Below the pieces are notes generated by a model. That model was not told where the DNA came from, did not search any database, and saw only the letters and a list, made by a program, of their open reading frames with translations. Made by a program: the position numbers and the translations under genes. From the NCBI GenBank assembly GCA_018027755.1, contig GCA_018027755.1_4098.1: DNA of 64,000 nt, one strand, 5' to 3'. This stretch comes from a phage. This document shows, piece after piece, positions 24,915 through 64,000 of this stretch. Each line of letters opens with the position of its first letter. Position 1 is the first letter of the stretch.

Positions 24915-24929
24915 TTAATAGAGAATACT

Positions 24930-41905: not shown

Positions 41906-41936
41906 GATAGTTTCATTAACTCAAGGAGTAAATGCA

Positions 41937-48486: not shown

Positions 48487-48740
48487 AACACTTGACGAAC
48501 GATGAATATTCACTTAGAATTCGAAAGCTCACCCCAGAAGCAAGAGTAATCTACGATGACGATGCACTTTCATGGAACGAGATGAAAGTTAAAGTTCATG
48601 AGCTATGGTTGCTGTACTTTGTGGGAACCCAATATCAAGAGAAATATTGTACCGATTATCTTGAACAACTAATGGATCTTATACAGATAAAACTAAATGA
48701 ACGAATTGTGGAAAAATATGAAAACTTTATCAAGCACTGA
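48483..48740 (+). CDS. small protein, tandem family B
   Basis: ORF track; VGTQYQEKY. Confidence 0.65.
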   Translation: MKHLTNDEYSLRIRKLTPEARVIYDDDALSWNEMKVKVHELWLLYFVGTQYQEKYCTDYLEQLMDLIQIKLNERIVEKYENFIKH

Positions 48741-48969
48741 GTATCAAACTGCCCTCTTCTCCCTTCTAAACACCCTCCGCACGAACAATAAACTTTATAA
48801 TTCCCGTGAAGCTGATATCGTCAACGCTGATGTATATCTTAATAAATTCATAGGGACTAACTATCAAGAACTGTTCACTCTACGATATATCGCTGCATTG
48901 AGAAACGAAATATCAGATAAAACCCGTCAAGCCAGAAGAGAATGGAATAAACAATGCGACACAGACTAA
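48718..48969 (+). CDS. small protein, tandem family B
   Basis: Track ORF trimmed to MKTLSSTEY; IGTNYQELF. Confidence 0.6.
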   Translation: MKTLSSTEYQTALFSLLNTLRTNNKLYNSREADIVNADVYLNKFIGTNYQELFTLRYIAALRNEISDKTRQARREWNKQCDTD

Positions 48970-49205
48970 ATCACAAAATGTATTGTAAACTATTACAGAC
49001 ACTGGCACAGAAACACTATGACACGGTATCTGGAATATTACCCTATGATATCATGCGTTTACTTCACTGTGAGGCCGAGATGCTTGTACTGATGACTGGC
49101 ACAGATAAAAACGCAATTGCCAAATCTATAGATATGTTCATCGATGCACACTGCCAACACATTAGAACCGAGATATGGAGACGTGAGAATGAAAATCCTG
49201 ACTGA
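48954..49205 (+). CDS. small protein, tandem family B (divergent)
   Basis: ORF track; MTGTDKNAIAK in motif position. Confidence 0.5.
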   Translation: MRHRLNHKMYCKLLQTLAQKHYDTVSGILPYDIMRLLHCEAEMLVLMTGTDKNAIAKSIDMFIDAHCQHIRTEIWRRENENPD

Positions 49206-49404
49206 GCATGAGTATTACAATAGGTTAAGAACTATACAAGGAAAAGTCTCGTGGACTTTTTTAGATAATTCTATTGCAGAAGCGGACCGATGTGTTATAA
49301 TAGCTGAAATGAAGCTATTACTCTTCATTGGGACAAACTATCAAAGTATCTACATAGACGCATGGTTAAGCAGCTTACGTCTGAAGTCGGTGAGTTTAAA
49401 ATGA
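49189..49404 (+). CDS. small protein, tandem family B
   Basis: Track ORF trimmed to MKILTEHEY; IGTNYQSIY. Confidence 0.6.
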   Translation: MKILTEHEYYNRLRTIQGKVSWTFLDNSIAEADRCVIIAEMKLLLFIGTNYQSIYIDAWLSSLRLKSVSLK

Positions 49405-49619
49405 GAAAATTAATAGGTTTCGAATATGTTAAGCTTCTACAAACCTGTGGAATCAGAAGGAGAATGATTCAAAAGGATAAAAAAATTGCCGAAGAACGAA
49501 AGTATATAATGATAACTGAACTTTATGTCTTAACACTCTTAGGCACAAACTATCAACACACTTATGTAGACCTATGGATCGATGCACTACAGAAAGAGGT
49601 TAAAAGTAAATGCAAATGA
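49401..49619 (+). CDS. small protein, tandem family B
   Basis: Track ORF trimmed to MRKLIGFEY; LGTNYQHTYV. Confidence 0.6.
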   Translation: MRKLIGFEYVKLLQTCGIRRRMIQKDKKIAEERKYIMITELYVLTLLGTNYQHTYVDLWIDALQKEVKSKCK

Positions 49620-49828
49620 TTAATTTAAGTAAAGATGAATATTATGAACGTCTTGCAAAAACTTATCCAGCACGTAACGCCGTTTATAATAGTAACATTA
49701 TTGAACGCTCAAAGAAGTTGATTGTAGTAAATGAGATTAAGATGCTTTCAGTCTTAGGAACAAACTATCAAGAGAATGCTGTACTGTTGTTAATTGATGC
49801 CCTCCAGAGAGAGATACAAAGTAAATGA
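49610..49828 (+). CDS. small protein, tandem family B
   Basis: ORF track; MQMINLSKDEY; LGTNYQENAV. Confidence 0.65.
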   Translation: MQMINLSKDEYYERLAKTYPARNAVYNSNIIERSKKLIVVNEIKMLSVLGTNYQENAVLLLIDALQREIQSK

Positions 49829-50073
49829 TTCATTTATCTTACCATGATTATCAAAAACGTTTAAATGCATCAAGGGATATAAGGATTCAAATCTTCAATA
49901 ACAAAAAATTGAAACCTGACACCAGAAGAATCAAAATGATAGAAGCAGAGTTATGCAACTTCCTGGGGACGAACTATCAGGCAGGTAAGGTAAAAAACTA
50001 TCTTAGAGAACTAATGATTTGTATCGAAAATAAATGTGAGGTTGATGAACATGCAAATGATCAATTTAAGTAA
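49825..50073 (+). CDS. small protein, tandem family B
   Basis: ORF track; LGTNYQAGKV. Confidence 0.6.
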   Translation: MIHLSYHDYQKRLNASRDIRIQIFNNKKLKPDTRRIKMIEAELCNFLGTNYQAGKVKNYLRELMICIENKCEVDEHANDQFK

Positions 50074-50314
50074 AGATGAATATACCGAGCGTATGACAAA
50101 AATTACGCACAAACGTAATACAATCTATCACAACCCAGAAATCCAACACAGTAAGAAAATGATTATGATGCGTGAGTTAAAGATGGGTGTATTCTTAGGA
50201 ACAAACTATCAAGATACAGAAGTAAATCGCTTAATCGCGGAGTTACTACTGGAAATCAGAGGTAAGCTGTACTTTCATCAAATGACCCAACCACTGAGGT
50301 GTACTGATCGATGA
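50051..50314 (+). CDS. small protein, tandem family B
   Basis: Track ORF trimmed to MQMINLSKDEYTER; paralog of 49610..49828. Confidence 0.6.
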   Translation: MQMINLSKDEYTERMTKITHKRNTIYHNPEIQHSKKMIMMRELKMGVFLGTNYQDTEVNRLIAELLLEIRGKLYFHQMTQPLRCTDR

Positions 50315-50562
50315 ATGCGATGAATATTGTGAATAACATCAGATTAGCAGAAAGATTTGATAGAATTGGGGAAGCACTGAGAAGATACGATAAAGAATAT
50401 GGTCATTTGAGCTTTTCTATAGAAAAGAGATATGAACTTGAAGCAGAGTTTAAAATGCAGAGTCTCTTAGGCACACAGTATCAAAACCAATATATTCAAA
50501 CTTGGATTGATTGTTTAATCCAGACAATTTACGTAAGAAACATTAAATGCAAAATGAAATGA
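50311..50562 (+). CDS. small protein, tandem family B
   Basis: ORF track; LGTQYQNQYI. Confidence 0.6.
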   Translation: MNAMNIVNNIRLAERFDRIGEALRRYDKEYGHLSFSIEKRYELEAEFKMQSLLGTQYQNQYIQTWIDCLIQTIYVRNIKCKMK

Positions 50563-50807
50563 TATACTTAACCTATAATGAATACGTCGAGAGATTAGTT
50601 CGTGCCAAGAGATATACCAATAAACGTCCAATTGACCTAAACCAAACCCCAGCAGAAAGGAGTGCAGAAGTATTATTCCAATCACTACCATATCTTCTGG
50701 GAACTGATAGACAAGAGGAATATGTTGCACGTATGATTAGATATCTTAAAATCACTATTAAGGAAAAAGTAAATGCAAATGCAAATGAAATACTTAACAG
50801 ACGATGA
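50547..50807 (+). CDS. small protein, tandem family B
   Basis: ORF track; LGTDRQEEYV; paralog of next gene. Confidence 0.6.
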   Translation: MQNEMIYLTYNEYVERLVRAKRYTNKRPIDLNQTPAERSAEVLFQSLPYLLGTDRQEEYVARMIRYLKITIKEKVNANANEILNRR

Positions 50808-51030
50808 GTTAAAAGAACGACTAATTAAATCCAGAAAACTTACAAATCAACTTCCAAACGACACAAACAAGTCACATGCCGAAAGGAGTGCAGAAGTTTT
50901 ATACATTCAACTCATGTACTTTCTTGGAACTGACAGACAAGAGTATTACATTGAAAGTATGCTTCGATATCTTAAATTCTCTATAAAGGAAAAGATACAT
51001 GCTCAAGAATTTAAAAATCCTAACAGTTAA
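50773..51030 (+). CDS. small protein, tandem family B
   Basis: ORF track; LGTDRQEYYI. Confidence 0.6.
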   Translation: MQMQMKYLTDDELKERLIKSRKLTNQLPNDTNKSHAERSAEVLYIQLMYFLGTDRQEYYIESMLRYLKFSIKEKIHAQEFKNPNS

Positions 51031-51256
51031 TGAATATCATACGATTGTAATGAAAACTAATAGTGAAATTTCTAAAAAATCAAACCCAAAGTACATACTG
51101 GAACACACATTCGAAGAACGCCAATTAGCTCTAGTTGAAGCAAAACTTCTTGCACTCCTAGGAACAAACTATCAGGAAGAATACATCAGAAAACTAATAT
51201 ACCTTTTAACTAAACACATCAGGAAAAGAAAAAAGCATGAAGCACTTGACAGATGA
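50999..51256 (+). CDS. small protein, tandem family B
   Basis: ORF track; LGTNYQEEYI. Confidence 0.65.
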   Translation: MLKNLKILTVNEYHTIVMKTNSEISKKSNPKYILEHTFEERQLALVEAKLLALLGTNYQEEYIRKLIYLLTKHIRKRKKHEALDR

Positions 51257-51467
51257 TGAACATGGGCTTATAGTAATGGATGTAATCAACATCGAATACA
51301 AAAAGTTGATACGCTACCGTTGTTATGAAGATAAGCAACTCGTTCTAGCAGAACAGAAGTTGTTTCGACTCTTAAACACAAACTTCCAAGCACAATACGA
51401 AGAATCGTATATGTACCTTTTGGCGAGGAAAGCAAAAAGAGATTATGAAAATTTTAAGCAAAGGTGA
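51237..51467 (+). CDS. small protein, tandem family B
   Basis: ORF track; LNTNFQAQY. Confidence 0.6.
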   Translation: MKHLTDDEHGLIVMDVINIEYKKLIRYRCYEDKQLVLAEQKLFRLLNTNFQAQYEESYMYLLARKAKRDYENFKQR

Positions 51468-51660
51468 TTCAGTAATATTACTTATAGAGAGTTCAAGTAA
51501 ATTCTTAAACATAACACTGTCTGATATAGATGAAGATGACAAAGAAGTACTGAGAGCAGATTTAAGAGTACTGTTACATATCGGAACAAACCTACAAGAA
51601 GAATATGTAGAGTGCTACATCAATGAACTTAAAGAATTAGTACTGAGAAAATGCAAATGA
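51445..51660 (+). CDS. small protein, tandem family B
   Basis: ORF track; IGTNLQEEYV. Confidence 0.6.
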   Translation: MKILSKGDSVILLIESSSKFLNITLSDIDEDDKEVLRADLRVLLHIGTNLQEEYVECYINELKELVLRKCK

Positions 51661-51878
51661 AAATCATTACCGATGCAGAATACCTAACAATCATAAATGG
51701 ACTGTTTTTGAAGCTCTTCGTCATTAACACATCAGATATACCAGATATGGATAAAATTATTAAGAGAAATGAAGTCTATGTTCTAGCTACCCTTGGAACG
51801 AACTATCAAGAACACGACATTAAAGATTATATTAATACACTTAAACGAGCGATTGAACTAAAATGCCAAAACCACTAG
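51651..51878 (+). CDS. small protein, tandem family B
   Basis: ORF track; LGTNYQEHDI. Confidence 0.65.
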   Translation: MQMKIITDAEYLTIINGLFLKLFVINTSDIPDMDKIIKRNEVYVLATLGTNYQEHDIKDYINTLKRAIELKCQNH

Positions 51879-52078
51879 GAACAGCAGAATACATTGAACT
51901 AATGGGATTACACTTCTCATCCTTTCAGAAACTTATGCGAGAATCAAAGAATGATTTAGAATATACCATCAGAGGTTCCGATTTAAGAATGCTTCTCACC
52001 CTAGACACAGATTCCCAAGAGCGATTTGTCAATGAGCATATTAGAGCACTTTTAATGGAAATTCAAAGTAAACTATGA
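51863..52078 (+). CDS. small protein, tandem family B
   Basis: ORF track; LDTDSQERFV. Confidence 0.55.
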   Translation: MPKPLGTAEYIELMGLHFSSFQKLMRESKNDLEYTIRGSDLRMLLTLDTDSQERFVNEHIRALLMEIQSKL

Positions 52079-52290
52079 AGGTAATATCAAATCAAGAGTA
52101 CTTGGCACTATTCAGGAAGAATAATCACAAATATATGGCACTTGATTCAAGAACTGATATAAGTGAACTTGAAAAAAATCTTTTGCGTTCAGATATGATA
52201 GTACTGACACTCTTAGGAACACAGCATCAAGAGAGAACTGTTAATTCACACATAGAAATACTTAAGAAGCTTATACAGGAAAAGTTATGA
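52075..52290 (+). CDS. small protein, tandem family B
   Basis: ORF track; LGTQHQERTV. Confidence 0.6.
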   Translation: MKVISNQEYLALFRKNNHKYMALDSRTDISELEKNLLRSDMIVLTLLGTQHQERTVNSHIEILKKLIQEKL

Positions 52291-52508
52291 GAATCATAAC
52301 ACAACAAGATATTCTTAAGTTCACAAGGGTTCATGCATCTGAATTTGATGCTATATTATCAAAAAGTTACAACAACCCTTATACACAAGATGTACACTAC
52401 AATGAATTATGGGTGTATATACTTTTAGGTACAGATCATCAAGAGCAAGCAGTACAGAAGTATTTGTTAGCTTTACGTGATGCTACTGCTAATGGAGTAC
52501 GTGTTTAA
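52287..52508 (+). CDS. small protein, tandem family B
   Basis: ORF track; LGTDHQEQAV. Confidence 0.6.
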   Translation: MRIITQQDILKFTRVHASEFDAILSKSYNNPYTQDVHYNELWVYILLGTDHQEQAVQKYLLALRDATANGVRV

Positions 52509-52509
52509 T

Positions 52510-52752
52510 ATGAAAGTACTGACAGAACTAGAAATGTATCATAGATTTAATAAGTACTATCATTTACTTAAGCCTATACAGAGGATTAAATGTCCATTTG
52601 AAGAGAAACAGGTTTTAATCTATGAGCACAAGTTCTTTGTATCATTAGGTACAGATCAACAAGAGTACTATTTGACGTTGTACTTGATTACATTAATAGA
52701 TTTAATTTACTATAAAACCAAACAAGCTAATAAAGAGAAATATGAAAACTAA
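52510..52752 (+). CDS. small protein, tandem family B
   Basis: Track ORF trimmed to MKVLTELEMY; LGTDQQEYYL. Confidence 0.6.
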   Translation: MKVLTELEMYHRFNKYYHLLKPIQRIKCPFEEKQVLIYEHKFFVSLGTDQQEYYLTLYLITLIDLIYYKTKQANKEKYEN

Positions 52753-53086
52753 TATACAACTCAAGGTATATAAATCATTTGAACATACATATATCAAAAG
52801 TAGTCTATGTAGAGATGTAATGGATTACAAGGGTAAGCCATTCACAATTACTTATGATTCTTATGTTGATGATTTATATATATCATTTGTTAATTACGAA
52901 AATAAAATATACAAGCACGTTGATATTAAAGATTTAAGTACTTTATCTGAAGAGGAATACTTTCAGGAATCATTAGTATGGGATTTAGAGTTTCCTATGC
53001 CATTAGTACATAAGATGATAGTACTAATGAAAGAATCTAAACAGGAGCCTAATGGTGATTATGAAGAACACACAGTTGAGTATTAA
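52742..53086 (+). CDS. tandem family C protein (acidic-aromatic-FQ-x-SL motif)
   Basis: ORF track; SEEEYFQESLVWD. Confidence 0.6.
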   Translation: MKTNIQLKVYKSFEHTYIKSSLCRDVMDYKGKPFTITYDSYVDDLYISFVNYENKIYKHVDIKDLSTLSEEEYFQESLVWDLEFPMPLVHKMIVLMKESKQEPNGDYEEHTVEY

Positions 53087-53456
53087 AAGTACTGATAATA
53101 TTAAGAGTTATACAAGCTCAAGTACTGTGACAATCGAAGTGAATTCTATTAATGCTGGTAATGCAGTAGATAAGTTCTTTATTGCTCAAGGGTACAGGAA
53201 AGATATTCATCAATATTGTTCAGTATATGGGGAGTACAATAGTACTGAAGATATAATTTATTGGTCAACACATCAAGATTATCTAACTAAAATTGGAGTC
53301 CCAGATGTTAGTACTTTATCTGAAGAAGAATACTTTCAGTACAGCTTAATATGTGATGTACCTATACCTTTAGGGTTAATCAAGGGTATACAGGAAGAGG
53401 TTCATAAGCTTAAATCCATGAGTAAAGGTACTTTCATTAGAACAGTGCAATACTAG
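53052..53456 (+). CDS. tandem family C protein
   Basis: ORF track; SEEEYFQYSLICD; paralog of previous. Confidence 0.6.
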   Translation: MVIMKNTQLSIKSTDNIKSYTSSSTVTIEVNSINAGNAVDKFFIAQGYRKDIHQYCSVYGEYNSTEDIIYWSTHQDYLTKIGVPDVSTLSEEEYFQYSLICDVPIPLGLIKGIQEEVHKLKSMSKGTFIRTVQY

Positions 53457-53457
53457 C

Positions 53458-53486
53458 TTGACAGTACTTTTCATTACTGATATAGT
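53458..53486 (+). promoter_or_regulatory. sigma70-like promoter (TTGACA-N17-TATAGT)
   Basis: -35 53458-53463, -10 53481-53486, before ATG 53516. Confidence 0.5.
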
Positions 53487-53515
53487 ACACTAACGTTAAT
53501 CATAGGGTAAAAATT

Positions 53516-53761
53516 ATGTTAAATTTTTTAAATTTCCTTATCGTTTTGTGTATTGTTCTTGGGATTGCACCATTTGTATTGTATTTCATGGATTCAGATG
53601 AAATGCAGAAGATGAATTGCACAAGGACAGGACAGAGTAGAGAAGAGACGATTCTTATGCCTGTTACGGTTATTGTTAACAACATGCCCATTACAAACAT
53701 GGTCCCTACCCTAACGACAACGTACCAGTACTCTTGTGCTGACGGAGAGAGGTGGAGATGA
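53516..53761 (+). CDS. small membrane-anchored protein (81 aa)
   Basis: ORF track; hydrophobic N-terminal helix; own promoter. Confidence 0.55.
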   Translation: MLNFLNFLIVLCIVLGIAPFVLYFMDSDEMQKMNCTRTGQSREETILMPVTVIVNNMPITNMVPTLTTTYQYSCADGERWR

Positions 53762-54078
53762 AATTTAATATAGCAAAAACATCGAGTATATGTATTTTTG
53801 GTTATGCAGAAGAGTTAGGTGATATTGACATTCTTTTGTACAAAAAGGATGGTGTTATGCATTTCAAGTACCAGGATGAAGAGGCAGACAATTATCTTTT
53901 ACCTAATTTAGTACAAATGCAGGAAGAGGAATTATTCCAGTACAGCTTAGTATACGACATTGATATTTGCACGATGCCAGTACTAATTAGTATTCAAAAA
54001 GTGATGCTCGATATGTATGATAAGCTAATACAAGGTACATCAGGGAGAATCATTGAAATCGATATACAAGACAATTAA
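53752..54078 (+). CDS. tandem family C protein
   Basis: ORF track; EEELFQYSLVYD. Confidence 0.6.
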   Translation: MEMKFNIAKTSSICIFGYAEELGDIDILLYKKDGVMHFKYQDEEADNYLLPNLVQMQEEELFQYSLVYDIDICTMPVLISIQKVMLDMYDKLIQGTSGRIIEIDIQDN

Positions 54079-54271
54079 TCAAGAATGGAAGACCCAAAAG
54101 TACAGGGAATTCAACAGGAATTTTACAAAAGATGCATTGAATTTAAAAACAACAGAGTTTGATATGTTTATTTTTCTTGGAACACGTTCACAAGAACAAT
54201 TTGTTCATTATTATATAAATTCGTTGCGAACGGAGATAGTATGCAAAACACAGGGTATTATAAAAAGGTAA
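54053..54271 (+). CDS. small protein, family B-like (embedded in family C array)
   Basis: ORF track; FLGTRSQEQFV motif. Confidence 0.5.
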   Translation: MKSIYKTINQEWKTQKYREFNRNFTKDALNLKTTEFDMFIFLGTRSQEQFVHYYINSLRTEIVCKTQGIIKR

Positions 54272-54507
54272 ACCAATATTTGTACGCTACAAAGTACAGG
54301 GATTTTTGTTTAAAGGGTGGTGATGAAGATTTTTCTTTGCGATTATCAGAATTTAATCTGTTATTTTATCTTGGTACAAAAGAACAAGAAGAAATGGCAC
54401 AGAAATTTATCAAGCACCTTTTACAAAAAATTAATATGCAAATTTTGATGCTTAAGTTACAGAATGAGATAAATGAATATGAATCCAGAAATAGTTCAGG
54501 ATCTTAA
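54241..54507 (+). CDS. small protein, family B-like
   Basis: ORF track; YLGTKEQEEMA motif. Confidence 0.5.
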   Translation: MQNTGYYKKVNQYLYATKYRDFCLKGGDEDFSLRLSEFNLLFYLGTKEQEEMAQKFIKHLLQKINMQILMLKLQNEINEYESRNSSGS

Positions 54508-54865
54508 AAAAGTAATATTTCTTTTGAATACCAGAAGTGAATTGTATACAGAGTTAAAAGAGATTAATGCATTTTATCAGAATTTTGTAATCCAAGAGTT
54601 CAGTGATTTAATTACAGATGCATTATTTGAATTCTCGGAGAAATACAAAGGAACAGAGTTCAGTGTTAAGAATGTTATTCGTCCAAGTACAAGGAAAATT
54701 ATATTATCACATTTTACATTTGACAATAAAGATTTATTCAGTCATAATCCAAGTACAGCTTTATATTTTATTCCTGATTCAGACAAAAATCATCCTATTC
54801 ATTACGGATGGATTTTGTCATATATAGTACAAGGAAAGGAGTATCCTATTAAATGGAAAGATTAG
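54473..54865 (+). CDS. hypothetical protein (130 aa)
   Basis: ORF track; no family motif. Confidence 0.5.
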   Translation: MNMNPEIVQDLKKVIFLLNTRSELYTELKEINAFYQNFVIQEFSDLITDALFEFSEKYKGTEFSVKNVIRPSTRKIILSHFTFDNKDLFSHNPSTALYFIPDSDKNHPIHYGWILSYIVQGKEYPIKWKD

Positions 54866-55013
54866 GGCGATTAGATTATTACACAATTAATACAAATTAT
54901 TTGTTGAGTAATATAAAATCCGATTACAAAATATGGATAAAGAACAGAGATAGCATGTGTTATGAATTTTATTTAGATTATGCTATCAAACGATTTTTAA
55001 GAGAAGAACATTA

Positions 55014-55217
55014 ATGCAAAAGATTAATACGATAACATTAAATGCATTACAGGATTCATTATTAGATAGTATTAAGATGTATTACAATATACATTTGAAG
55101 GGTGGTATTGATAATTACGATTATTATTTGAGTTTAATTACATTTGAGCACCTTTCAGTACAGGACAGGATTATACATCCTACAAATCCTAGGTATCCAT
55201 CGATAGGTAAATTATGA
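55014..55217 (+). CDS. hypothetical protein (67 aa)
   Basis: ORF track. Confidence 0.45.
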   Translation: MQKINTITLNALQDSLLDSIKMYYNIHLKGGIDNYDYYLSLITFEHLSVQDRIIHPTNPRYPSIGKL

Positions 55218-55762
55218 ATGAGATAGATTTATTAGCACACAAGATAAGTACAATAATGCTTATCCTCAATAACAACCATCCTATATCGCAGATAGATGGA
55301 ATCCTGAGTCAGAGGACAGGTGGTAGTTTATATTTGTCCATAAACGCAGATATCGCAAGGAAATACATTGATATTGATGTTGAAATCGAATATGATACAA
55401 CGGGGATTGTTGATGTAGGAGCATTAATCAGTTCAAATCCAGTATCAGCATCCCCATTGACCAAAGATGTTAGTACAGGATTCGAAGGATATTTGTGGTA
55501 CAATACCAATGATGATTATTTTATATATCAGCATTCCAATACAAATTATGATGAAGACAAATTTCAGTTCATAGACCCTTATGATGAAGCTGAAGTATTT
55601 CAAAAATCATTAATCACAAAACCGCATGAGATGATGTATCTAATGTTATTCAGTACAATGCATTTGAATCCATTAATTAAAGGTTTAAAATTTTATATTC
55701 AATTAAATTTAGTCCATGTAGTTTATGATTTATTAATGCAAGGATATAGTTATGAAGTATAA
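55214..55762 (+). CDS. tandem family C protein
   Basis: ORF track; DEAEVFQKSLITKP. Confidence 0.55.
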   Translation: MNEIDLLAHKISTIMLILNNNHPISQIDGILSQRTGGSLYLSINADIARKYIDIDVEIEYDTTGIVDVGALISSNPVSASPLTKDVSTGFEGYLWYNTNDDYFIYQHSNTNYDEDKFQFIDPYDEAEVFQKSLITKPHEMMYLMLFSTMHLNPLIKGLKFYIQLNLVHVVYDLLMQGYSYEV

Positions 55763-56063
55763 AATGATGTATACCCCAGATATGATTTATGTTGAATTAG
55801 AAGATGATGACGATGGGTGGAATTTGATTTATTCAAGAAGTTCAGGTTGGTACATGGCACATTTAAATGATTCGATAGTTACAGATTATTTTGTAGATTT
55901 CAATACATTATCCGATGAAGAATTGTTCCAACAGCAATTAGTGATTGACACGGGTGGTTATGATGTCTTATTATTAAAAAAGATACAAAAAGCTGTTATT
56001 GATTTTAAGCCCATGATATGGCAAAGGAAATATTATGACCTCGAAGTACCATACCAGCAATGA
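55752..56063 (+). CDS. tandem family C protein
   Basis: ORF track; SDEELFQQQLVID. Confidence 0.6.
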   Translation: MKYKMMYTPDMIYVELEDDDDGWNLIYSRSSGWYMAHLNDSIVTDYFVDFNTLSDEELFQQQLVIDTGGYDVLLLKKIQKAVIDFKPMIWQRKYYDLEVPYQQ

Positions 56064-56601
56064 AATTCAGTACACCTACGCTAATGCAATCCTTATGGGA
56101 CAAAAGTTAGCTTGTATTGTTGCAGCCTTATATAATGCCCAGAAAGATTACAAGCGTCATATCCACAAATGTATTGGTATTATTCCATCGAAGTACAATA
56201 CATATATTGCGTGCACGAGTCATTTTGATAAACGATTCAATACACCTGATACCCCAAATGCCAGTAGTGTTATTGGTCTTTTGGATTTCGCACCTGGTGC
56301 TGTTATTGGAAAGAATGATTTAGAGTACACATGGTATAATAAAAATGCCCCGTTAGTAATGGGAAAATATGATACAGAAACGAATAAAACAATAGAGTAC
56401 AATACATATAAATCAGAGGAAGAATTTTTCCAAGGTTCATTGCTTGTACCAGTGCGTTTGTTGTTTTATAATGTCCTTATTAGTACAGTACACAATAGTC
56501 CATTACACAAGAATCACAAAATTAATTTCAATTTTTGTGCTTATGCGATTGATGGTGTGTATGAGTGTTTAATGGAGGTATTGAGTTATGAAGCTGAATA
56601 A
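56035..56601 (+). CDS. tandem family C protein
   Basis: ORF track; SEEEFFQGSLLV. Confidence 0.6.
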   Translation: MTSKYHTSNEIQYTYANAILMGQKLACIVAALYNAQKDYKRHIHKCIGIIPSKYNTYIACTSHFDKRFNTPDTPNASSVIGLLDFAPGAVIGKNDLEYTWYNKNAPLVMGKYDTETNKTIEYNTYKSEEEFFQGSLLVPVRLLFYNVLISTVHNSPLHKNHKINFNFCAYAIDGVYECLMEVLSYEAE

Positions 56602-56929
56602 TACATTTGATATTAATAAGTTAAGAGAATGGTTTTATAGTATTGAAATTGAAGCCATCCCGTATCATAGATATGAACAATATAATTTAACCAGTATTGA
56701 TATCCGTGAGTTGTACGCGTATTATCAAAGTGCATTAGAGATGCATAAGTTATTTTTGAGTACAGATTTTGTTATAAATTACAATTTTGAGGAATTTAAT
56801 AATTATAATTTAGTACAGAAATATGTAGTAGCAAAGTACATGTACCTTCAAGGAATTACAAGTAATTTGGAATTCAATACAGTCCTGGCTTTAGTTGAGG
56901 TAATTTTATGCAGTACATGTATGATTTAG
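56588..56929 (+). CDS. hypothetical protein (113 aa)
   Basis: ORF track; no clear family motif. Confidence 0.5.
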   Translation: MKLNNTFDINKLREWFYSIEIEAIPYHRYEQYNLTSIDIRELYAYYQSALEMHKLFLSTDFVINYNFEEFNNYNLVQKYVVAKYMYLQGITSNLEFNTVLALVEVILCSTCMI

Positions 56930-57414
56930 AGTTTAGTTTAGATGCTGCCTTTAAATTTGTTCACAAGATAGAAACAATATACAGTACATTATGTGCAATA
57001 CAATCAGTATCATCTGAGTTTGATGTTGGTGAAAAATATCAGGTATGGAATAATACATTTCTAAACAAAGAACGTTGCTCTACGGGGTTTAATATTTTAA
57101 CATTTAATCCCAGCAATTGTTACCCAGAGAAGCATGAACGTTATCCGAATGACGACATGTGGTTTGATTACACAAAAGATGGTGATATGTCATCCCTTGT
57201 AGTTCCTGATGATTTTAATGCCGAAGATTTAACGAAAGAGTGGTGGTTTCAACAGAATTTAGTACACGATGATATTGATTTATTTTTTTATGTAGTATTT
57301 AAAATGCTTTACCACAACAATATATTAAAAGATAGTGTGTTTTTTTCATGTCTATATATTGATGATTTGTACAATGAAATCCAAATCAACATGCCCAGAA
57401 CGCCTGTATCGTAA
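56908..57414 (+). CDS. tandem family C protein
   Basis: ORF track; KEWWFQQNLVHDD. Confidence 0.55.
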   Translation: MQYMYDLEFSLDAAFKFVHKIETIYSTLCAIQSVSSEFDVGEKYQVWNNTFLNKERCSTGFNILTFNPSNCYPEKHERYPNDDMWFDYTKDGDMSSLVVPDDFNAEDLTKEWWFQQNLVHDDIDLFFYVVFKMLYHNNILKDSVFFSCLYIDDLYNEIQINMPRTPVS

Positions 57415-57439
57415 GATATGGGCTTTTTTCGTTTTGGTA

Positions 57440-57468
57440 TTGACAAAGAAGTGCAAAGCTGTTATCAT
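57440..57468 (+). promoter_or_regulatory. sigma70-like promoter (TTGACA-N17-TATCAT)
   Basis: -35 57440-57445, -10 57463-57468; T-run just upstream; AAAGGAG RBS downstream. Confidence 0.45.
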
Positions 57469-57496
57469 GTGTAATCATTTTAAAGGAGAACATATA

Positions 57497-58009
57497 GTGA
57501 GTTTCATAATCCCTAGTACATACGAAGATGCATCAAGTGCAGTTCATAAGATTCATTATATTTTTAATTTAATTATTAGATCTGCAAAAATTAAAATGTA
57601 TGCACCTCTTGTGACAAATAATCGAAATGAAGAAATTTTTATTAGCACAGACAAAATTATTTTTCCATATTTCAATGAAGATATATTGTGGTTCATACAT
57701 TTAGCTGCATTACAAAAATATAAAATGTCAATTCGTAATAATTTGGATATACCGTTATATCATCCTGATATTGGAGAGGATGAATATTTTCAGTACAGTA
57801 CAGTACACCGCCATGAAGATATCTTTGTTGCTATGCTTATTGCTAAATTGAACACCGTTGATTTGGAGTACCACAAATACAATAATAAATCATGTAAGAT
57901 CATAATCCCTGCATTCATAGCTCTTTATGATTATGTGGTGCATAACAAAAAAGATGATACATATGCTTTCAATGAAGAGTATTTGAATTTTTTTAAGGAG
58001 AACATATGA
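57497..58009 (+). CDS. tandem family C protein
   Basis: Track ORF 57335..58009 trimmed to GTG 57497 after AAAGGAG; EDEYFQYSTVH. Confidence 0.5.
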   Translation: MSFIIPSTYEDASSAVHKIHYIFNLIIRSAKIKMYAPLVTNNRNEEIFISTDKIIFPYFNEDILWFIHLAALQKYKMSIRNNLDIPLYHPDIGEDEYFQYSTVHRHEDIFVAMLIAKLNTVDLEYHKYNNKSCKIIIPAFIALYDYVVHNKKDDTYAFNEEYLNFFKENI

Positions 58010-58533
58010 GCAGTGAAGTGCAGAAATCAATGACATTCAATGAAATTGGTGCATTTAAAGATAAGATCATTGATTGCATTGAATACATGATTTGTAGTAA
58101 TATCGAAAGTATCGAGATATTTAACAAGACAAATCGCTCTTACCATATGATGTACATTGCAAACAATAATGGTATCATTCCATTTATTTCGGATAGTACA
58201 ATATGGTACGCATGTGATACGAAAAAAACCACAATAGGTTTACATTCATTTGAGACACATTATGATCTAATTATTCCTGAACATTGTATGCAAGAAGAAG
58301 AATATTTTCAAATGCAATGTATACATTCACCATTAGTGTTGTTTAGTTTATATATTATACCTTATATCACCAAATGTGTTCATGAGAATAAAGCTCCGTG
58401 GAATCATGAATTTGTATCGTTGAAGTTATTGTATAATGTATTAGTAGAATATTATGATTACAGGCACAATGGTACAATCAGTGATGTATGGGATTTTGAA
58501 TCGCTAAGGGTGAAAACATACACAGGTGAATGA
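58006..58533 (+). CDS. tandem family C protein
   Basis: ORF track; EEEYFQMQCIH. Confidence 0.6.
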   Translation: MSSEVQKSMTFNEIGAFKDKIIDCIEYMICSNIESIEIFNKTNRSYHMMYIANNNGIIPFISDSTIWYACDTKKTTIGLHSFETHYDLIIPEHCMQEEEYFQMQCIHSPLVLFSLYIIPYITKCVHENKAPWNHEFVSLKLLYNVLVEYYDYRHNGTISDVWDFESLRVKTYTGE

Positions 58534-59149
58534 TATGACCAGAATTAAAATGTATGATTTGATGCAGTACAGTAAAATTGCCATTCCAGTGCTTAATAAA
58601 GTGCTGGATGCATTCATTGCCAAATACCCTGAGAATTCAGTGTTATGTATTCCATTTAGTGTTCCAGATAAAGATGATATATTCCAAGTGAATGTCAGTA
58701 CACGTGGTATTACATTGCAGCAGAAATATATGGATACGGAATATTATGGAATAAAGTTGGATTCAGTACAGGGTTCTAAATCAGCCTATGATTTTTTTGT
58801 TCCTAATAACATCGAGTCATGGGAAACAAACATTTCAAAGAAAGATGAAAATGATGTTCCTATTAGTGGTGTGTTCAACAATAAAGTTTTTTATTATTAC
58901 GAAACCGACAAATTCCCTGAAGAGTTATATTACAATTCAGAAATGAATGAAGATGTAGATGCATTCATGTTTCAATTATCTTTAGTACATGATATCATTG
59001 ATGTTCAAGAGTTAAGAGCAGAAATCAATTTAGCTAAAGAGTTATCGGACATGCTGCCACCGTTTAGTATGCTTTTTTGTGAAGGAGGTTATTTTTCAAA
59101 AGAAGTGTTTGAACATTTCGTAGATGTTGTAAAAGGGTTGGATATATAG
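58526..59149 (+). CDS. tandem family C protein
   Basis: ORF track; DAFMFQLSLVHD. Confidence 0.55.
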   Translation: MNDMTRIKMYDLMQYSKIAIPVLNKVLDAFIAKYPENSVLCIPFSVPDKDDIFQVNVSTRGITLQQKYMDTEYYGIKLDSVQGSKSAYDFFVPNNIESWETNISKKDENDVPISGVFNNKVFYYYETDKFPEELYYNSEMNEDVDAFMFQLSLVHDIIDVQELRAEINLAKELSDMLPPFSMLFCEGGYFSKEVFEHFVDVVKGLDI

Positions 59150-59150
59150 T

Positions 59151-59345
59151 ATGCTTATAATTGATATTAAACAAAAATACCGTAAGTTTGATTGGTTCAC
59201 CGATAGTTTCCAGCTTGAATTATTACATATGAATATCAGTGAAACATTATGTGCAGAAACACAAGATGAATTTGATGATAGAGTGATGAACATAGTAATG
59301 CTTTCTTGCTTTAAACATTTTGGTTATTTTTTCGGACAGAATTGA
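59151..59345 (+). CDS. hypothetical protein (64 aa)
   Basis: ORF track. Confidence 0.45.
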   Translation: MLIIDIKQKYRKFDWFTDSFQLELLHMNISETLCAETQDEFDDRVMNIVMLSCFKHFGYFFGQN

Positions 59346-59353
59346 GGTAAAAA

Positions 59354-59872
59354 ATGCATCAACACAAGCATCATTCATATGATTTTGCAATTAACATTAT
59401 GAAGTTTATTCGAGCGTTGGAGGATGGGAAGCTTAGTCATAAGTACACCAAAGTAGGTGACAATTGGTTCAGAAATGATGATGATGAGTTCAGAAGTCAT
59501 AAGATTGTTTACAGCAATAATTACAGTGCCAATTACCTACAAGATGTAGTGATGTGTTTTGAATACGTGTTGCAGTTCAGGGGTTCAATCCAAGATGAGT
59601 TGATGGAGAACATGTACATCCGATACCTTCCAATGCTCAAAGATGAAAATGTATTATTAAATTCAATATACCAACGAGTTCGTGAAATTGAGTGCAGGGA
59701 TATATTAGATACAGAAGAATCGTATTTCCAGCAATCCCTGATTTATGCACCTGATTTATTACAGGTACATAATTTGTTTAATACATTACGTCAGAACATC
59801 AGTACAGACATATTTTTGTCATTATCGGATTATGATACATTTGTCAAAGATTTAGAGGAAATAGGTTTATGA
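59354..59872 (+). CDS. tandem family C protein
   Basis: ORF track; EESYFQQSLIYAPD. Confidence 0.6.
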   Translation: MHQHKHHSYDFAINIMKFIRALEDGKLSHKYTKVGDNWFRNDDDEFRSHKIVYSNNYSANYLQDVVMCFEYVLQFRGSIQDELMENMYIRYLPMLKDENVLLNSIYQRVREIECRDILDTEESYFQQSLIYAPDLLQVHNLFNTLRQNISTDIFLSLSDYDTFVKDLEEIGL

Positions 59873-60213
59873 GTCGATTTTCGGTTTATATAGTAAACGT
59901 CAGTAAAGATGGTAGTTTAATTGAATTTGATGTAGTTGATAACAATGATAATTCATATGGTATTAAGGTACAGGACAATAATGTACAGTTCAGTACAAGG
60001 ACAAATTTTGAGAATCCAGTCCAAGTTCCGAATTTCATAGAAGATGAAGCTGCACGATTCCAATACGAAACGGCCTTTGATAATATGCATATGCATATTA
60101 TTATGCAACAAAGTTTAGTTCAATTGCTTCAGGTATTCAGACAAAATATATATGTACATGAAGTGTCGATTAATGGCATTCAAAGTTCCGTTTTGTTCGG
60201 TACAAATATGTAA
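59869..60213 (+). CDS. tandem family C-like protein
   Basis: ORF track; degenerate motif (ARFQYETAF..QQSLVQL). Confidence 0.5.
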   Translation: MSRFSVYIVNVSKDGSLIEFDVVDNNDNSYGIKVQDNNVQFSTRTNFENPVQVPNFIEDEAARFQYETAFDNMHMHIIMQQSLVQLLQVFRQNIYVHEVSINGIQSSVLFGTNM

Positions 60214-60223
60214 GGAAAGTACA

Positions 60224-60775
60224 ATGAGTTCAATGAGTTTATTAGATACATTAGAAAAAGACAGAAGTGCAATTAAGCGTTTAAAAGAGCAAGTACAAAA
60301 GATTGTATACAACGTTGATAAGTTTGAGGTTCCCGGAAGATTTGGTGATATTTCCCATACGGAGATCAAATCCCTTAAGTCAGATTTGTTGATTAAAAAT
60401 AAAAATGGGTTGATTTTAGTTTTGAGTTCAGATATGATGGGGGCAACACATAGTTATAATGCCGTATCGGTGCGTTCCGAGTGTGAAGGTATATATCTAT
60501 CACAGGGTTTCAATAGCGAGACACAGGTTTGTTTTTGTGATGCAGTACATGACCCTATGAAGTTCACGAGAAGTGAAGCCCAAGCGTTATTAGAGCTATC
60601 AGACGAGAGTTTGTTTCAGTACAGTACAATGTATGACAATGATAAGCTTCGTTGTATGTACGCTGTAAAGCATTATACACAGGAGTTTTCTGGATTTGCA
60701 TACCTTTTAGTTAGAACCAATACCAGATATATTGATATGTTAGAAGATTACATCGATAAAGTTGTTAATGTATGA
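60224..60775 (+). CDS. tandem family C protein
   Basis: Track ORF trimmed to ATG 60224 after AAGGAAAG; DESLFQYSTMYD. Confidence 0.55.
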   Translation: MSSMSLLDTLEKDRSAIKRLKEQVQKIVYNVDKFEVPGRFGDISHTEIKSLKSDLLIKNKNGLILVLSSDMMGATHSYNAVSVRSECEGIYLSQGFNSETQVCFCDAVHDPMKFTRSEAQALLELSDESLFQYSTMYDNDKLRCMYAVKHYTQEFSGFAYLLVRTNTRYIDMLEDYIDKVVNV

Positions 60776-60965
60776 TGTATTATTATGTGATGGGATAATG
60801 CTGATGAAAGAGTTATTTGAAGATCAGTTCAATACATATGTGGATAATATTCTTTATTCCAGCCGTGCTAGTCAACGAGGAAATCGTGCTTACAATATTG
60901 ATTACCTATTAGTGGTGCTGAGTTCACAGTACACCTACGCTGTACAGAGGACATATTATGAATAA
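60762..60965 (+). CDS. hypothetical protein (67 aa)
   Basis: ORF track. Confidence 0.45.
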   Translation: MLMYDVLLCDGIMLMKELFEDQFNTYVDNILYSSRASQRGNRAYNIDYLLVVLSSQYTYAVQRTYYE

Positions 60966-61161
60966 TTTTAGAGATGTTGCTAAGGAGAAGTTCAAGTGCA
61001 GTTTAGATTTTGGGTTAAATGATTTTCTGACATGCACAATGTACAGGAATGATGATTATGAGCAATCCGTAATTTCGTTGCACAGATATTTCGAAATAAT
61101 TTACGCAAGATATCTTAGAAGGTTAGAGGGAATAGGGGATTGGTATAATGATTACGTTTGA
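60958..61161 (+). CDS. hypothetical protein (67 aa)
   Basis: ORF track. Confidence 0.45.
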   Translation: MNNFRDVAKEKFKCSLDFGLNDFLTCTMYRNDDYEQSVISLHRYFEIIYARYLRRLEGIGDWYNDYV

Positions 61162-61384
61162 AGAACCAGAAACAATGAGTCCATATACGATGAAAGGTTT
61201 TGAATTCATGATGGATTCAATTTTGAAGAGTTCGTGTTTAGTACACAATCCTGAGCGTGCAACAGTGAGGGAATATCAGGACAATGCATTACAGCGTGTA
61301 ATGAATATGTACAGGAATACGAGTCGCAAGCTTTGTGCGTTGAAAAGGATTGAAGAAATCAAGGTTTCTAGGCTGAATAAATAG
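61148..61384 (+). CDS. hypothetical protein (78 aa)
   Basis: ORF track. Confidence 0.45.
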   Translation: MITFEEPETMSPYTMKGFEFMMDSILKSSCLVHNPERATVREYQDNALQRVMNMYRNTSRKLCALKRIEEIKVSRLNK

Positions 61385-61581
61385 AGACGTTTCATTTTGA
61401 CAGGCCGCAGGGGGGGTCAAAAAAATTTCCGCTGAAAAACATGCTAAGGTATATGTTTAATATAAAGTTTTATATTGTGTTTTTCAGAGTACAGTTCATG
61501 TTTCCTGAAACAAAAAATACCCCGCCGCCGAACGTTCTCCTTATATTGGAGTTTACCTTATTAATTATAGTAGAGATTAAG

Positions 61582-61959
61582 ATGGAAATAAAATATAATG
61601 AATTTTGTGCAAGGACATGGATGTACACTGGTGAGTTAGTTACGCACTCTAACTTATACAAGGGTGATTTAAACTACGCTAGGGACAAGATTTTAAAGTA
61701 CTGGAATGCTGACTTTTATTTGATGGATTTTAGTACTGGGTTTAGGGGTAAAGCAACCGAGATGTTGGACTATACAGTACTTGATGATGCTGCACTGTTT
61801 CAGGAGGCATTAGTATTTGATAAGAAGTACATCTGTACATTAGAAGAGATGATTGAATTACAGCGTAGTATTAAATGTATTCACAGGGAATGTATAGATA
61901 TCTGGTGCAGTACTGGTGAAGATAATTTTTGTAATCATTTCAATCTAGGGGAAGTGTGA
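61582..61959 (+). CDS. tandem family C protein
   Basis: Track ORF 61441..61959 trimmed to MEIKYNEF; DAALFQEALVFDKKY. Confidence 0.5.
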   Translation: MEIKYNEFCARTWMYTGELVTHSNLYKGDLNYARDKILKYWNADFYLMDFSTGFRGKATEMLDYTVLDDAALFQEALVFDKKYICTLEEMIELQRSIKCIHRECIDIWCSTGEDNFCNHFNLGEV

Positions 61960-62315
61960 TGGAATTTGATTTTTTAATATCAGTACATACTTTCAAGCAC
62001 AGTTATCAGTACTTTTGTAATTTAAACAAAGGTGATTTAATGCACAGTGCAAATGAGTATATTCATTACACTCAGGGTAAATTTACATTCATTGATTACA
62101 GTTCATTACAGTATCCACACCAAGATATGCCGGACTATACATTAATGGATACCGCAGAACTATTCCAAGAATCATTAGTATTTGATAAGAAGTACTTGTG
62201 TACATTTGAAGAAGTTATTGCAATACAAAATGAAATGAAAGAGTATGCTGCTTTGCATAAACCCAATGCAAGTATTAATCAAGAATACAAATTCAATTTA
62301 GGAATTCAAGAATGA
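61956..62315 (+). CDS. tandem family C protein
   Basis: ORF track; TAELFQESLVFDKKY; close paralog of neighbours. Confidence 0.65.
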   Translation: MMEFDFLISVHTFKHSYQYFCNLNKGDLMHSANEYIHYTQGKFTFIDYSSLQYPHQDMPDYTLMDTAELFQESLVFDKKYLCTFEEVIAIQNEMKEYAALHKPNASINQEYKFNLGIQE

Positions 62316-62671
62316 CATATGATTATTCTATGTACTATTATAAGTTACCTAAAGGATGGGACTTGTGCTGTAATCTTATTAAGGGCGACTCGGAACATGA
62401 GTTGAGTTTATATATGCATTACAAAGATTCTTGTTTTAAATTTATTCATGTATCACATGACGACTATGACTATGAATCTGAGAGTCTTATAGATTATACA
62501 GTACTGGACGATGGTGAACTATTTCAGGCTGCATTAGTGTTTGATAAGAATAAGTACTCCTGTACATTTGAAGAAATGGTTTCTTTGCAAAATGAAATGA
62601 AGAGATTTGAAAAAGAAAACGTATTTAATCCATCCCCATCAAGAACGAATAATTATTATTTCAATATATGA
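62312..62671 (+). CDS. tandem family C protein
   Basis: ORF track; DGELFQAALVFDKNKY. Confidence 0.65.
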   Translation: MTYDYSMYYYKLPKGWDLCCNLIKGDSEHELSLYMHYKDSCFKFIHVSHDDYDYESESLIDYTVLDDGELFQAALVFDKNKYSCTFEEMVSLQNEMKRFEKENVFNPSPSRTNNYYFNI

Positions 62672-62680
62672 GATTATAAA

Positions 62681-63175
62681 ATGACATTACAGAGTTCATT
62701 GGAAAAAGCAAAGAAGATTCATGAGTACATGAATATGGCAAAAGAAGGTTCAGTTTACGGTGTTTTCAAAGACACAAGTACTCAATATTATGTGCCAGAT
62801 AACCTCCTTTATAATGACTGCTCAGATACAGAAACGTGCGTACTGGATACAGAAACGTGCATACTAGATACCGACCCTAATGATTATGAATGTTTCATTG
62901 ATATGCATAATGAGTACATGGTCTATATTAATGATGCAGATATTACCATATACAGTACTGACTGCGATTCCGATGACATTATAATTCCGAGTGAAGTACT
63001 AGAAGGTCAGTGGGATAGTGAAGAGTATTACTTCCAACAAAGTACTGTATACGATGATGAAGTACTTGAAGTATTAGTTATTATGTGGTACTTTAAAAGT
63101 ATTGGTTCTGGGAACTTCTATTTCGATTACAGATACGTAACGAAAACTGTAGATAACGGTATTAACAGGGGTTGA
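62681..63175 (+). CDS. tandem family C protein
   Basis: ORF track; SEEYYFQQSTVYDDEVLEVLVIMWYF. Confidence 0.65.
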   Translation: MTLQSSLEKAKKIHEYMNMAKEGSVYGVFKDTSTQYYVPDNLLYNDCSDTETCVLDTETCILDTDPNDYECFIDMHNEYMVYINDADITIYSTDCDSDDIIIPSEVLEGQWDSEEYYFQQSTVYDDEVLEVLVIMWYFKSIGSGNFYFDYRYVTKTVDNGINRG

Positions 63176-63176
63176 A

Positions 63177-63647
63177 ATGAGTTTAGAAAGAGCATTAGAG
63201 ATTGCGAAGTTAATTGATTTATGCAGCAAAGAAATTGTAGCAAATTGTCTTAATGGATATCTATTCAAGGAAGGTAAATCATATTGTCGAATGAGATACG
63301 ATGACAGTAGTGAGTACATTCACATGTATGAAGAAAACTTAGATTCTTCTGAAACAACACTCAATGGGTGTGATGTTAATTTGGAAGATAATTACATGTA
63401 CTTCTGTCGTGATGCTGATATTTTAATACAAGATTCTGACATTATATCTGGTGCAGCAGAGAAACATCTTCCGTATTCAGTACTGGATAATGACTGGGGA
63501 AGTGAAGAGTACTACTTCCAGCAGAATACTATCTACGAGGAAGATGTACTTGACAAGCTTGTCATTCTGTGGTACTTTAATAATACAGATTGTCCTAGCT
63601 TCTATTTGGACTTGGATCTACTACGAGTTATTAAAGAGGATATATGA
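63177..63647 (+). CDS. tandem family C protein
   Basis: ORF track; SEEYYFQQNTIYEEDVLDKLVILWYF. Confidence 0.65.
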   Translation: MSLERALEIAKLIDLCSKEIVANCLNGYLFKEGKSYCRMRYDDSSEYIHMYEENLDSSETTLNGCDVNLEDNYMYFCRDADILIQDSDIISGAAEKHLPYSVLDNDWGSEEYYFQQNTIYEEDVLDKLVILWYFNNTDCPSFYLDLDLLRVIKEDI

Positions 63648-64000
63648 GTTTAGCAAGTGCACTTGAACTAGCACACAGAATACATCACTTCCACGATAAC
63701 ATAAAAAGTGGGTTCTATGGTGATAAAGTAAGTGCATTTGGTGATGAGTATTATCTATCAGGTATAAAGACATACTCTGATGATATTTTACTTATGGGAC
63801 AGGATAAAGACAATACTATACAGTACTCTTCATGTAGTCAATATACTAATTTTTTTGTATATATTCCAGGTACTAAGATTACTTTTGACACAACAAATAC
63901 ACCTGTTGACTTCGGGGTACTTGATGGCCCGTGGGGTACTGAAGAGTATTACTTCCAACAGAGTCTCATTTTTAACCAAGAAATTCTTGATTCCTTGGTT
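63644..64000 (+). CDS. tandem family C protein, 5' portion (3' end outside window)
   Basis: ATGA overlap at 63644; TEEYYFQQSLIFNQEILDSLV; open to window edge. Confidence 0.55.
   Translation, partial: MSLASALELAHRIHHFHDNIKSGFYGDKVSAFGDEYYLSGIKTYSDDILLMGQDKDNTIQYSSCSQYTNFFVYIPGTKITFDTTNTPVDFGVLDGPWGTEEYYFQQSLIFNQEILDSLV

Follow-up and report, generated by a model that had tools for sequence, protein, structure and literature searches.

A paralog family with an invariant Phe-Gln motif in Asteriusvirus and related jumbo phages, and a probable structural role for the motif block

Two published observations form the background to the gene family described here, which carries an invariant Phe-Gln (FQ) pair and occupies the end of a 64,000-nucleotide (nt) stretch of phage DNA (contig GCA_018027755.1_4098.1, the whole of which is called the window below). 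A comparative survey of jumbo phages (PMC7824862) highlighted an expansion of about 35 zinc-ribbon copies in Bacillus phage G, and the paper on phage RaK2 remarked in general terms that nearly 10% of RaK2 proteins are paralogs. The FQ family is not highlighted in that survey, and no description of it was found in the literature on Asteriusvirus, RaK2 and jumbo-phage paralogs.

By sequence, the window is part of an Asteriusvirus jumbo coliphage, a giant phage of E. coli. Positions 52742-64000 are 97% identical across their full length to Escherichia phage vB_EcoM_G17 (G17), and the same region is 94-97% identical to PBECO4, 121Q, phAPEC6, SP27 and others. Asteriusvirus phages are jumbo myoviruses of about 350 kilobases (kb). 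Taking all the evidence together, we think it rather probable that the FQ genes are a clade-specific multigene family in which the conserved block is structural and the products are non-virion, probably early, host-directed binders or inhibitors.

The FQ array and its distribution

A preliminary description of this DNA had counted about 20 tandem paralogs of 103-207 amino acids (aa). Listing and translation of the open reading frames (ORFs) gives 18 complete paralogs of this size range between 52742 and 64000, all on the plus strand, and a 19th (63644-64000) that is incomplete where the window ends. The family as such is real; strict tandem contiguity did not hold, since the array is interrupted by about ten unrelated small non-member ORFs, including two genes of a second family (family B, 54053-54507) and a small membrane protein (53516-53761). 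The array is clustered, not strictly tandem or contiguous. FQ genes are densely packed on one strand, and in many of them stop and start codons overlap. The motif strings quoted in the preliminary description were all found: SEEEYFQESLV in 52742-53086, EEEFFQGSL in 56035-56601, DEELFQQQLV in 55752-56063, EEYYFQQS in both 62681-63175 and 63177-63647, and ELFQESLVFDKKY in 61956-62315. The individual genes are as follows.

52742-53086, plus strand: member 1, 114 aa; FQ codons at 52961-52966 (LSEEEYFQESLVWD)
53052-53456, plus strand: member 2, 134 aa; FQ at 53334-53339 (LSEEEYFQYSLICD)
53752-54078, plus strand: member 3, 106-108 aa (start GTG at 53752 or ATG at 53758); FQ at 53935-53940
55214-55762, plus strand: member 4, 182 aa, of the long type that has an N-terminal helix; FQ at 55598-55603
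55752-56063, plus strand: member 5, 103 aa; FQ at 55926-55931 (LSDEELFQQQLVID)
56035-56601, plus strand: member 6, 188 aa; FQ at 56428-56433 (SEEEFFQGSLLVP)
56908-57414, plus strand: member 7, 168 aa; FQ at 57247-57252 (TKEWWFQQNLVHD)
57467-58009, plus strand: member 8, about 170-180 aa; FQ at 57788-57793; start uncertain, as the ATG at 57467 coincides in part with a promoter-like -10 element and the coding sequence of the G17 counterpart begins 30 nt later
58006-58533, plus strand: member 9, 175 aa; FQ at 58306-58311 (QEEEYFQMQCIHS)
58526-59149, plus strand: member 10, 204-207 aa; FQ at 58970-58975 (VDAFMFQLSLVHD)
59354-59872, plus strand: member 11, 172 aa; FQ at 59726-59731
59869-60213, plus strand: member 12, 114 aa; FQ at 60058-60063 (DEAARFQYETAFD)
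60224-60775, plus strand: member 13, 183 aa, ORF open from 60152; FQ at 60614-60619
61582-61959, plus strand: member 14, 125 aa, ORF open from 61441; FQ at 61798-61803
61956-62315, plus strand: member 15, 118-119 aa, the short member modelled (helix 65-74, TAELFQESLV); FQ at 62163-62168
62312-62671, plus strand: member 16, 119 aa; FQ at 62522-62527
62681-63175, plus strand: member 17, 164 aa, the long member modelled (helix 114-120, EEYYFQQ); FQ at 63032-63037
63177-63647, plus strand: member 18, 156 aa; FQ at 63516-63521
63644-64000, plus strand: member 19, cut by the window end; FQ at 63953-63958 (GTEEYYFQQSLIFN); the array goes on beyond this point in related genomes
5195-5857, plus strand: outside the array, probably a diverged member; basic protein of 220 aa whose C-terminal block reads LMFQYSLIHKD; profile E=0.005
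22603-23262, plus strand: probable diverged member outside the array, 219 aa, basic, with LSEEEEFMYSTVID (EEEFMYSTVID), in which M replaces Q; profile E=0.001

Alignment and hidden Markov model searches, which were among the checks proposed in the preliminary description, gave a single profile family. The truncated 19th member, held out of the training set, was matched at E=1.2e-8, and G17 members lying beyond the window or absent from it at 1e-5 to 1e-26. Same-strand clustering and significant matches to one profile, among them non-training members with E values down to 1e-26, identify the genes as tandem, lineage-specific paralogs. F and Q are the sole invariant columns in the full-length and core alignments of the window members. 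A regular expression for the motif matched 19 times inside 52742-64000, twice elsewhere on the plus strand and five times on the minus strand, and the occurrence of the pattern in the array is far beyond chance. Two points of the preliminary description are amended here: the array extends far past the window end, and the two diverged probable members lie elsewhere in the window.

The size of the family became apparent with the same profile in other genomes. In G17, 32 members were found in a locus made up of the counterpart of the window and the 6 kb after it; a further 10 lie downstream, for a total of about 42 FQ members over about 29 kb (G17_00584 to about G17_00517). In OU509535.1, a Klebsiella phage that is RaK2-like, about 30 kb hold 27-30 members, and FQ is retained in all but one weak match of this array. 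A HMMER profile search of 1.84 billion representative proteins returned only 51 clusters at E<=1e-3, the named members being hypothetical proteins encoded by Asteriusvirus phages, RaK2, K64-1, Muenster and phiKp_21. A local profile search recovered 153 family sequences, the 51-cluster matches included, and FQ was present in every one. Foldseek against BFVD (probability >=0.9) matched uncharacterised proteins only, those with names coming from PBECO4, slurp01, 121Q, RaK2 and the Yersinia phages fHe-Yen9-03 and -04. A word-indexed homologue search found close Asteriusvirus orthologues only, and tblastn with the divergent family protein P0062 matched no phage record. This narrow profile and BFVD distribution indicates that the family is restricted to the RaK2-like jumbo phage clade (Asteriusvirus and relatives), and by the same comparison the expansion is older than the split of Asteriusvirus and the RaK2-group genera.

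Existing annotation says little about these genes. Pfam and NCBIfam scans of the members gave nothing above curated thresholds, PADLOC gave isolated weak single-member matches only, and profile searches with the family profiles matched no PDB sequence; the fold is thus one for which no solved relative is detectable. The family DUF2283 (PF10049) was considered because it is the UniRef name of the orthologue P0005, in which a strand-turn-strand of the type ITYDxxxDxLYISF resembles the DUF2283 start. It was rejected: P0005 alone gave a match, at 13.9 bits below the gathering cut-off of 23, whereas window members score nothing. Under the window match, the genes of G17 and its relatives are all annotated as hypothetical with one exception. 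This is phAPEC6 gp447c (locus positions 11822-12199, 378 nt), annotated 'amidohydrolase 3', which by size and gene order is the apparent orthologue of member 14 (61582-61959). The label looks spurious, because a Pfam amidohydrolase match is absent from every window member.

Predicted fold and the conserved block

One member of each type, long and short, was modelled with AlphaFold2, the input alignments being composed of paralogs and representatives. The long member (62681-63172) was modelled with a mean predicted local distance difference test (pLDDT) value of 88.2 and a predicted template modelling (pTM) score of 0.85. Its layout comprises an N-terminal helix at residues 3-22, six strands, helices at 104-108, 114-120 (EEYYFQQ) and 126-140, and then a strand and a helix. 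The short member (61959-62312; pLDDT 86.6, pTM 0.82) has five strands, a helix at 65-74 (TAELFQESLV), a helix at 83-99 and a last strand. The long and short subfamilies share the order of sheet, FQ helix, long helix and strand, and their variable N-terminal parts differ in length and secondary structure. In both models the motif is helical and the motif block lies inside one compact alpha+beta domain; the 10-residue blocks that hold the motif have mean pLDDT values of 93-98. Member 17, the long member modelled, also carries a 21-nt tandem duplication (62825-62866) that encodes DTETCVL-DTETCIL in an acidic, low-confidence loop.

A sequence logo of 110 distinct blocks, numbered from the invariant F as position 0, gives the consensus h-[S/T/D]-E-E-x-Ar-F-Q-x-S-[L/T]-[V/I]-Ar-D. 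On the N-terminal side, position -6 is L in 40 and M in 13 blocks, -5 is S (33), D (31) or T (26), -4 is E (84), -3 and -2 are E or A, and -1 is Y (41) or L (31), also R or F. F and Q fill positions 0 and +1 in 110 of 110. Thereafter +2 is variable, +3 is S in 83 of 110, +4 is L or T, +5 is V or I, +6 is Y, F, H or W, and +7 is D in 60 of 110. Helices are classically N-capped by S, T or D, and a hydrophobic staple joins the N' and N4 residues.

Secondary structure assignment with DSSP starts the motif helix at -4 in both models, so position -5 would be its N-cap. The block has the features of a helix capping box with hydrophobic staple, namely S, T or D at the N-cap, acidic residues at N1-N3, hydrophobic residues at N' and N4, and a helix that begins right after the cap. 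From this N-capping pattern, the acidic-aromatic look of the motif can be understood as a helix start signal. The agreement covers logo positions -6 to -1 and the DSSP helix start, although capping is a structural rule and not a protein family, and it leaves the invariant Q unexplained. The next helix of the long model starts at +8, and D at +7 would therefore be its N-cap. Helix periodicity places F, S(+3) and L/T(+4) on one face and Q and V/I(+5) on an adjacent face; together with conservation, this suggests that F and Q are buried.

We also examined how the members evolve. The pooled ratio of nonsynonymous to synonymous substitution rates (dN/dS) was 0.33 before the motif and 0.23 from the motif onward in comparison with phage UE-S1, and 0.37 and 0.29, respectively, with phage fEgEco12. 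The FQ members are genuine genes on which purifying selection acts, somewhat more strictly in the conserved half. Pervasive positive selection was considered and is ruled out by these pooled values of 0.23-0.37.

Genes and alleles turn over between phages. The synonymous rate (dS) per gene against fEgEco12 (55214-63647) ranges from about 0.03 to about 1.5 between neighbouring array genes, a spread that indicates mosaic allele replacement by recombination between phages. Copy number varies as well. UE-S1 is without clear orthologues of the members at 53052-53456 and 56035-56601, and its gene UES1_321 (locus positions 9338-10066) is an in-frame fusion of the equivalents of 61582-61959 and 61956-62315 that encodes 242 aa in two domains. 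Metagenomic chimeras joined near or within the conserved block were seen in P0036 (28-kb contig) and P0001 (662-nt contig), the latter combining the 53052 member's N-terminal part with the C-terminal part of the 52742 member and possibly being an assembly artefact. No other stretch of DNA is as well conserved between adjacent paralogs as the block (75-85% over 48-59 nt), and its conservation probably makes it, incidentally, a point of crossover.

Competing explanations and proposed role

The preliminary description had raised the block as a possible 3C/TEV-type processing site and, alternatively, as a structural core. For the former, a Gln-specific protease like picornavirus 3C or the tobacco etch virus (TEV) NIa protease, from phage or host, would cut after F-Q and free the variable N-terminal part from the C-terminal helices. 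The likeness is to sites in which E-x-x-Y-x-Q precedes G or S: 35 of the 110 distinct motifs, about a third, agree with the relaxed ExxYxQ, and Q is invariant across all 153 family sequences examined. The strict form ExxYxQ[GS], however, fits only 3 of 110, the P1' residue is the most variable position of the block (Y, E, Q, A, L, K or N), and most members have L, R, F or M at P3, which is often not Y. One diverged member (22603-23262) has M in place of Q. The proposed cut would fall not in an exposed linker but in a helix with pLDDT above 90 in the middle of a domain, with a later helix and strand of the same fold coming after it. The FQ phage has a bacterial host, and a cognate protease was not found in the searches made. 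A TEV protease query gave no Asteriusvirus match at E<=10 in tblastn against 50,697 phage records. A Pfam scan limited to 10 larger window ORFs, with no whole-genome profile scan behind the absence, found RCC1-repeat proteins, a GNAT acetyltransferase and a weak kinase-like match, and no protease above threshold. In papers on phAPEC6, Sharanji and RaK2, a T4-type prohead protease is the sole protease named in the annotation, and the family proteins are absent from the phAPEC6 virion. The confident helix within a compact domain, the poor consensus fit, the helix-capping logo, the lack of a 3C-like protease in these searches and the non-virion status together argue that the likeness to TEV sites exists only at the level of letters, and we regard cleavage at the block as very unlikely. 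A core position of the block had been named beforehand as speaking against cleavage, and the prediction does place it in a helix within a compact domain, with F and Q presumably buried. The two confident AlphaFold2 models support the structural alternative, and the conserved block is very probably a structural core element.

A further explanation of the block puts the conservation at the DNA level, with a recombination or regulatory sequence as the conserved entity and the protein motif as its by-product. The nucleotide conservation between neighbouring paralogs and the chimeric joints in P0036 and P0001, both described above, would fit. Codon usage among the 19 window members does not: the invariant F is encoded by TTT in 10 and TTC in 9, and the invariant Q by CAA in 10 and CAG in 9, so the constraint acts on protein, not DNA. 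This near-equal use of synonymous codons largely refutes the DNA-level explanation, amino-acid conservation persists despite DNA divergence in the RaK2-like array, and it is more natural to regard recombination at the block as following from its conservation. We give this possibility next to no weight.

Returning to the structural reading, several properties bear on where and when the proteins act. They are acidic, with a median isoelectric point (pI) of 4.7 and 15 of 18 below 5.5, compared with medians of 8.8 for family B and 6.1 for other window ORFs. In the published virion proteome of phAPEC6, the orthologues gp438c-gp466c are not among the 62 proteins detected, and by that list the FQ proteins are non-virion. 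The same absence rules out that they are virion proteins processed by the prohead protease. On the plus strand between 46 and 64 kb, five sequences match the sigma-70 consensus at 11 of 12 positions. Two of these have an extended TG, and each of the two falls in a different one of the few gaps between genes.

53458-53486, plus strand: sigma-70-like promoter match, TTGACA-17-TATAGT with TG, located between genes inside the array
57402-57423 and 57440-57468, plus strand: terminator-like hairpin with T-run, then a sigma-70-like promoter match, TTGACA-17-TATCAT with TG; a G17 terminator is annotated at the equivalent place

The second TG match directly follows the hairpin. Phage CBB, a relative, has RpoD-like promoters that mark out its presumed early region. 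The TG matches in gaps, taken with the CBB promoters, make early transcription by the host polymerase plausible, and FQ genes are probably transcribed early by host RNA polymerase. Directly 3' of the best sigma-70-like match (53458-53486) lies the 81-aa ORF 53516-53761, whose N-terminal segment is strongly hydrophobic and which probably encodes a small membrane protein. Within the array there is also a gap (61385-61581) that, at about 200 nt, is unusually long; it is non-coding or only weakly coding, with G/C-rich runs (GGGGGGG, CCCCGCCGCC) and a TTGACA box.

In the proposed architecture, the residue at -5 would cap the N-terminus of the short helix, and the acidic residues with the hydrophobic -6/-1 pair would form the capping box with hydrophobic staple. 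F and Q would sit within this short helix, S-L-V-Ar would serve as a short linker, and in long members D at +7 would cap the following long helix. The helix-linker-helix unit would pack on an antiparallel beta-sheet from the variable N-terminal part, so that the conserved helices would give the fold while the variable sheet and N-terminal helix would give specificity. The FQ proteins may then act in the infected cell as diversified binders or inhibitors for host takeover or anti-defence. We propose such a set of intracellular binding or inhibitor proteins tentatively, as a possibility somewhat short of even, because the proteins are non-virion, probably early, acidic and soluble, combine a conserved scaffold with variable parts, show copy and allele turnover, and occur in a single clade.

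The main rival to this favoured reading treats the F-Q helix as a shared docking surface, by which all paralogs would bind one partner, a host machine or a phage enzyme, while the variable part recruits or blocks different targets as an adaptor set. F and Q are invariant in Asteriusvirus and in all but one weak RaK2-like match while the rest drifts, helix periodicity read from the logo puts Q and V/I(+5) on a flank other than the F/S/L face, and the N-terminal parts vary in both length and secondary structure. On the other side, capping and packing rules account fully for the rest of the block, and Q to M is tolerated in one diverged member. We consider a docking surface unlikely. In its broadest form, the 30-40 paralogs per genome would be combinatorial adaptors or inhibitors against different host defence or housekeeping proteins, with the F-Q helix as a common docking module throughout the RaK2-like clade. 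This extension is doubtful; if true, it would be a bacterial-virus counterpart of the multigene families of eukaryotic DNA viruses, in a fold without a solved relative. The proteins might instead be sponges for small molecules such as nucleotide immune signals, with the invariant aromatic and Gln stacking on and hydrogen-bonding to a base. Known phage sponges use aromatic and polar pairs, and the FQ proteins present an invariant Phe beside an invariant Gln in small, non-virion, probably early proteins. We hold a sponge role to be quite improbable; it is, like a DNA-level signal, less likely than docking.

Several observations weigh against the favoured reading of a structural block in host-directed binders or inhibitors. 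A strictly invariant polar Q exceeds the usual demands of a fold and could mark a functional surface. The AlphaFold2 models were built on shallow alignments, mainly of paralogs (31 and 39 sequences), and in a comparison of profiles the two subfamilies, long and short, are joined only over the 24 columns of the motif block (probability 94%). Values of dN/dS of 0.2-0.4 reflect ordinary purifying selection with no arms-race signature, and the total of promoter-like matches is not above shuffled expectation.

Neighbouring genes and known systems

Other small-gene families surround the array. Positions 46845-52752 and 54053-54507 hold a second, larger array, family B, with at least 27 genes of 66-92 aa that carry an L-G-T-x-x-Q-E motif with invariant T, Q and L and are mostly basic. 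Two of its copies sit inside the FQ array, and the family is without a Pfam match. It was considered as a relative of the FQ family and rejected (hhalign probability 0.25%). Another small tandem family consists of six consecutive ORFs of 60-69 aa at 23962-25121, with KEFY near the N-terminus and a C-terminal LIYRY or LxxSY. On the minus strand, 6540-20874 contains about ten consecutive paralogous ORFs of 371-449 aa, of which the one scanned (9167-10357) has RCC1 repeats. These probably correspond to the approximately 40-kDa 'DNA condensation proteins' of phAPEC6 virions. Among the small genes upstream of the FQ array are one with a GNAT acetyltransferase domain (37908-38264, E=5e-9) and one with a weak, sub-threshold protein-kinase-like match (41880-42521, E=0.003).

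In a phage genome of 350 kb, the FQ genes account for roughly 8% of the length (about 29 kb in G17), and an array of about 30-40 copies is kept in two related jumbo-phage genera, some members of which have been proposed for therapy. Reading the block as a fold element instead of a cleavage site removes a misleading lead. It also becomes possible to define one superfamily where PHROGs spreads the members over 18 unrelated families, each of unknown function. Should the members turn out to be inhibitors directed at the host, a wealth of new anti-defence or host-takeover proteins would be found in the array.

Lineage-specific expansions in giant phages are already known in kind, and the FQ family is an uncharacterised paralog expansion with a predicted new fold. 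The zinc-ribbon family of Bacillus phage G (PMC7824862) likewise comprises tens of diverged paralogs of one small domain per genome with function unknown. The FQ fold is different, has no zinc ligands and is acidic, and the expansion is common to Asteriusvirus and the RaK2 group rather than confined to one phage. The acidic alpha-beta-alpha proteins p32/MAM33/C1QBP were also counted among the nearest known systems.

Among eukaryotic viruses, the multigene families (MGF) of African swine fever virus and the ankyrin/PRANC proteins of poxviruses form arrays of diverged paralogs that vary in copy number between strains, join a conserved module to variable parts and have a presumed host role. The FQ array resembles them in its diverged paralogs, copy-number variation and conserved and variable modules. 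FQ proteins are much smaller, however, their host is bacterial, and no sequence or fold relationship links the two, so that the parallel is one of analogy only.

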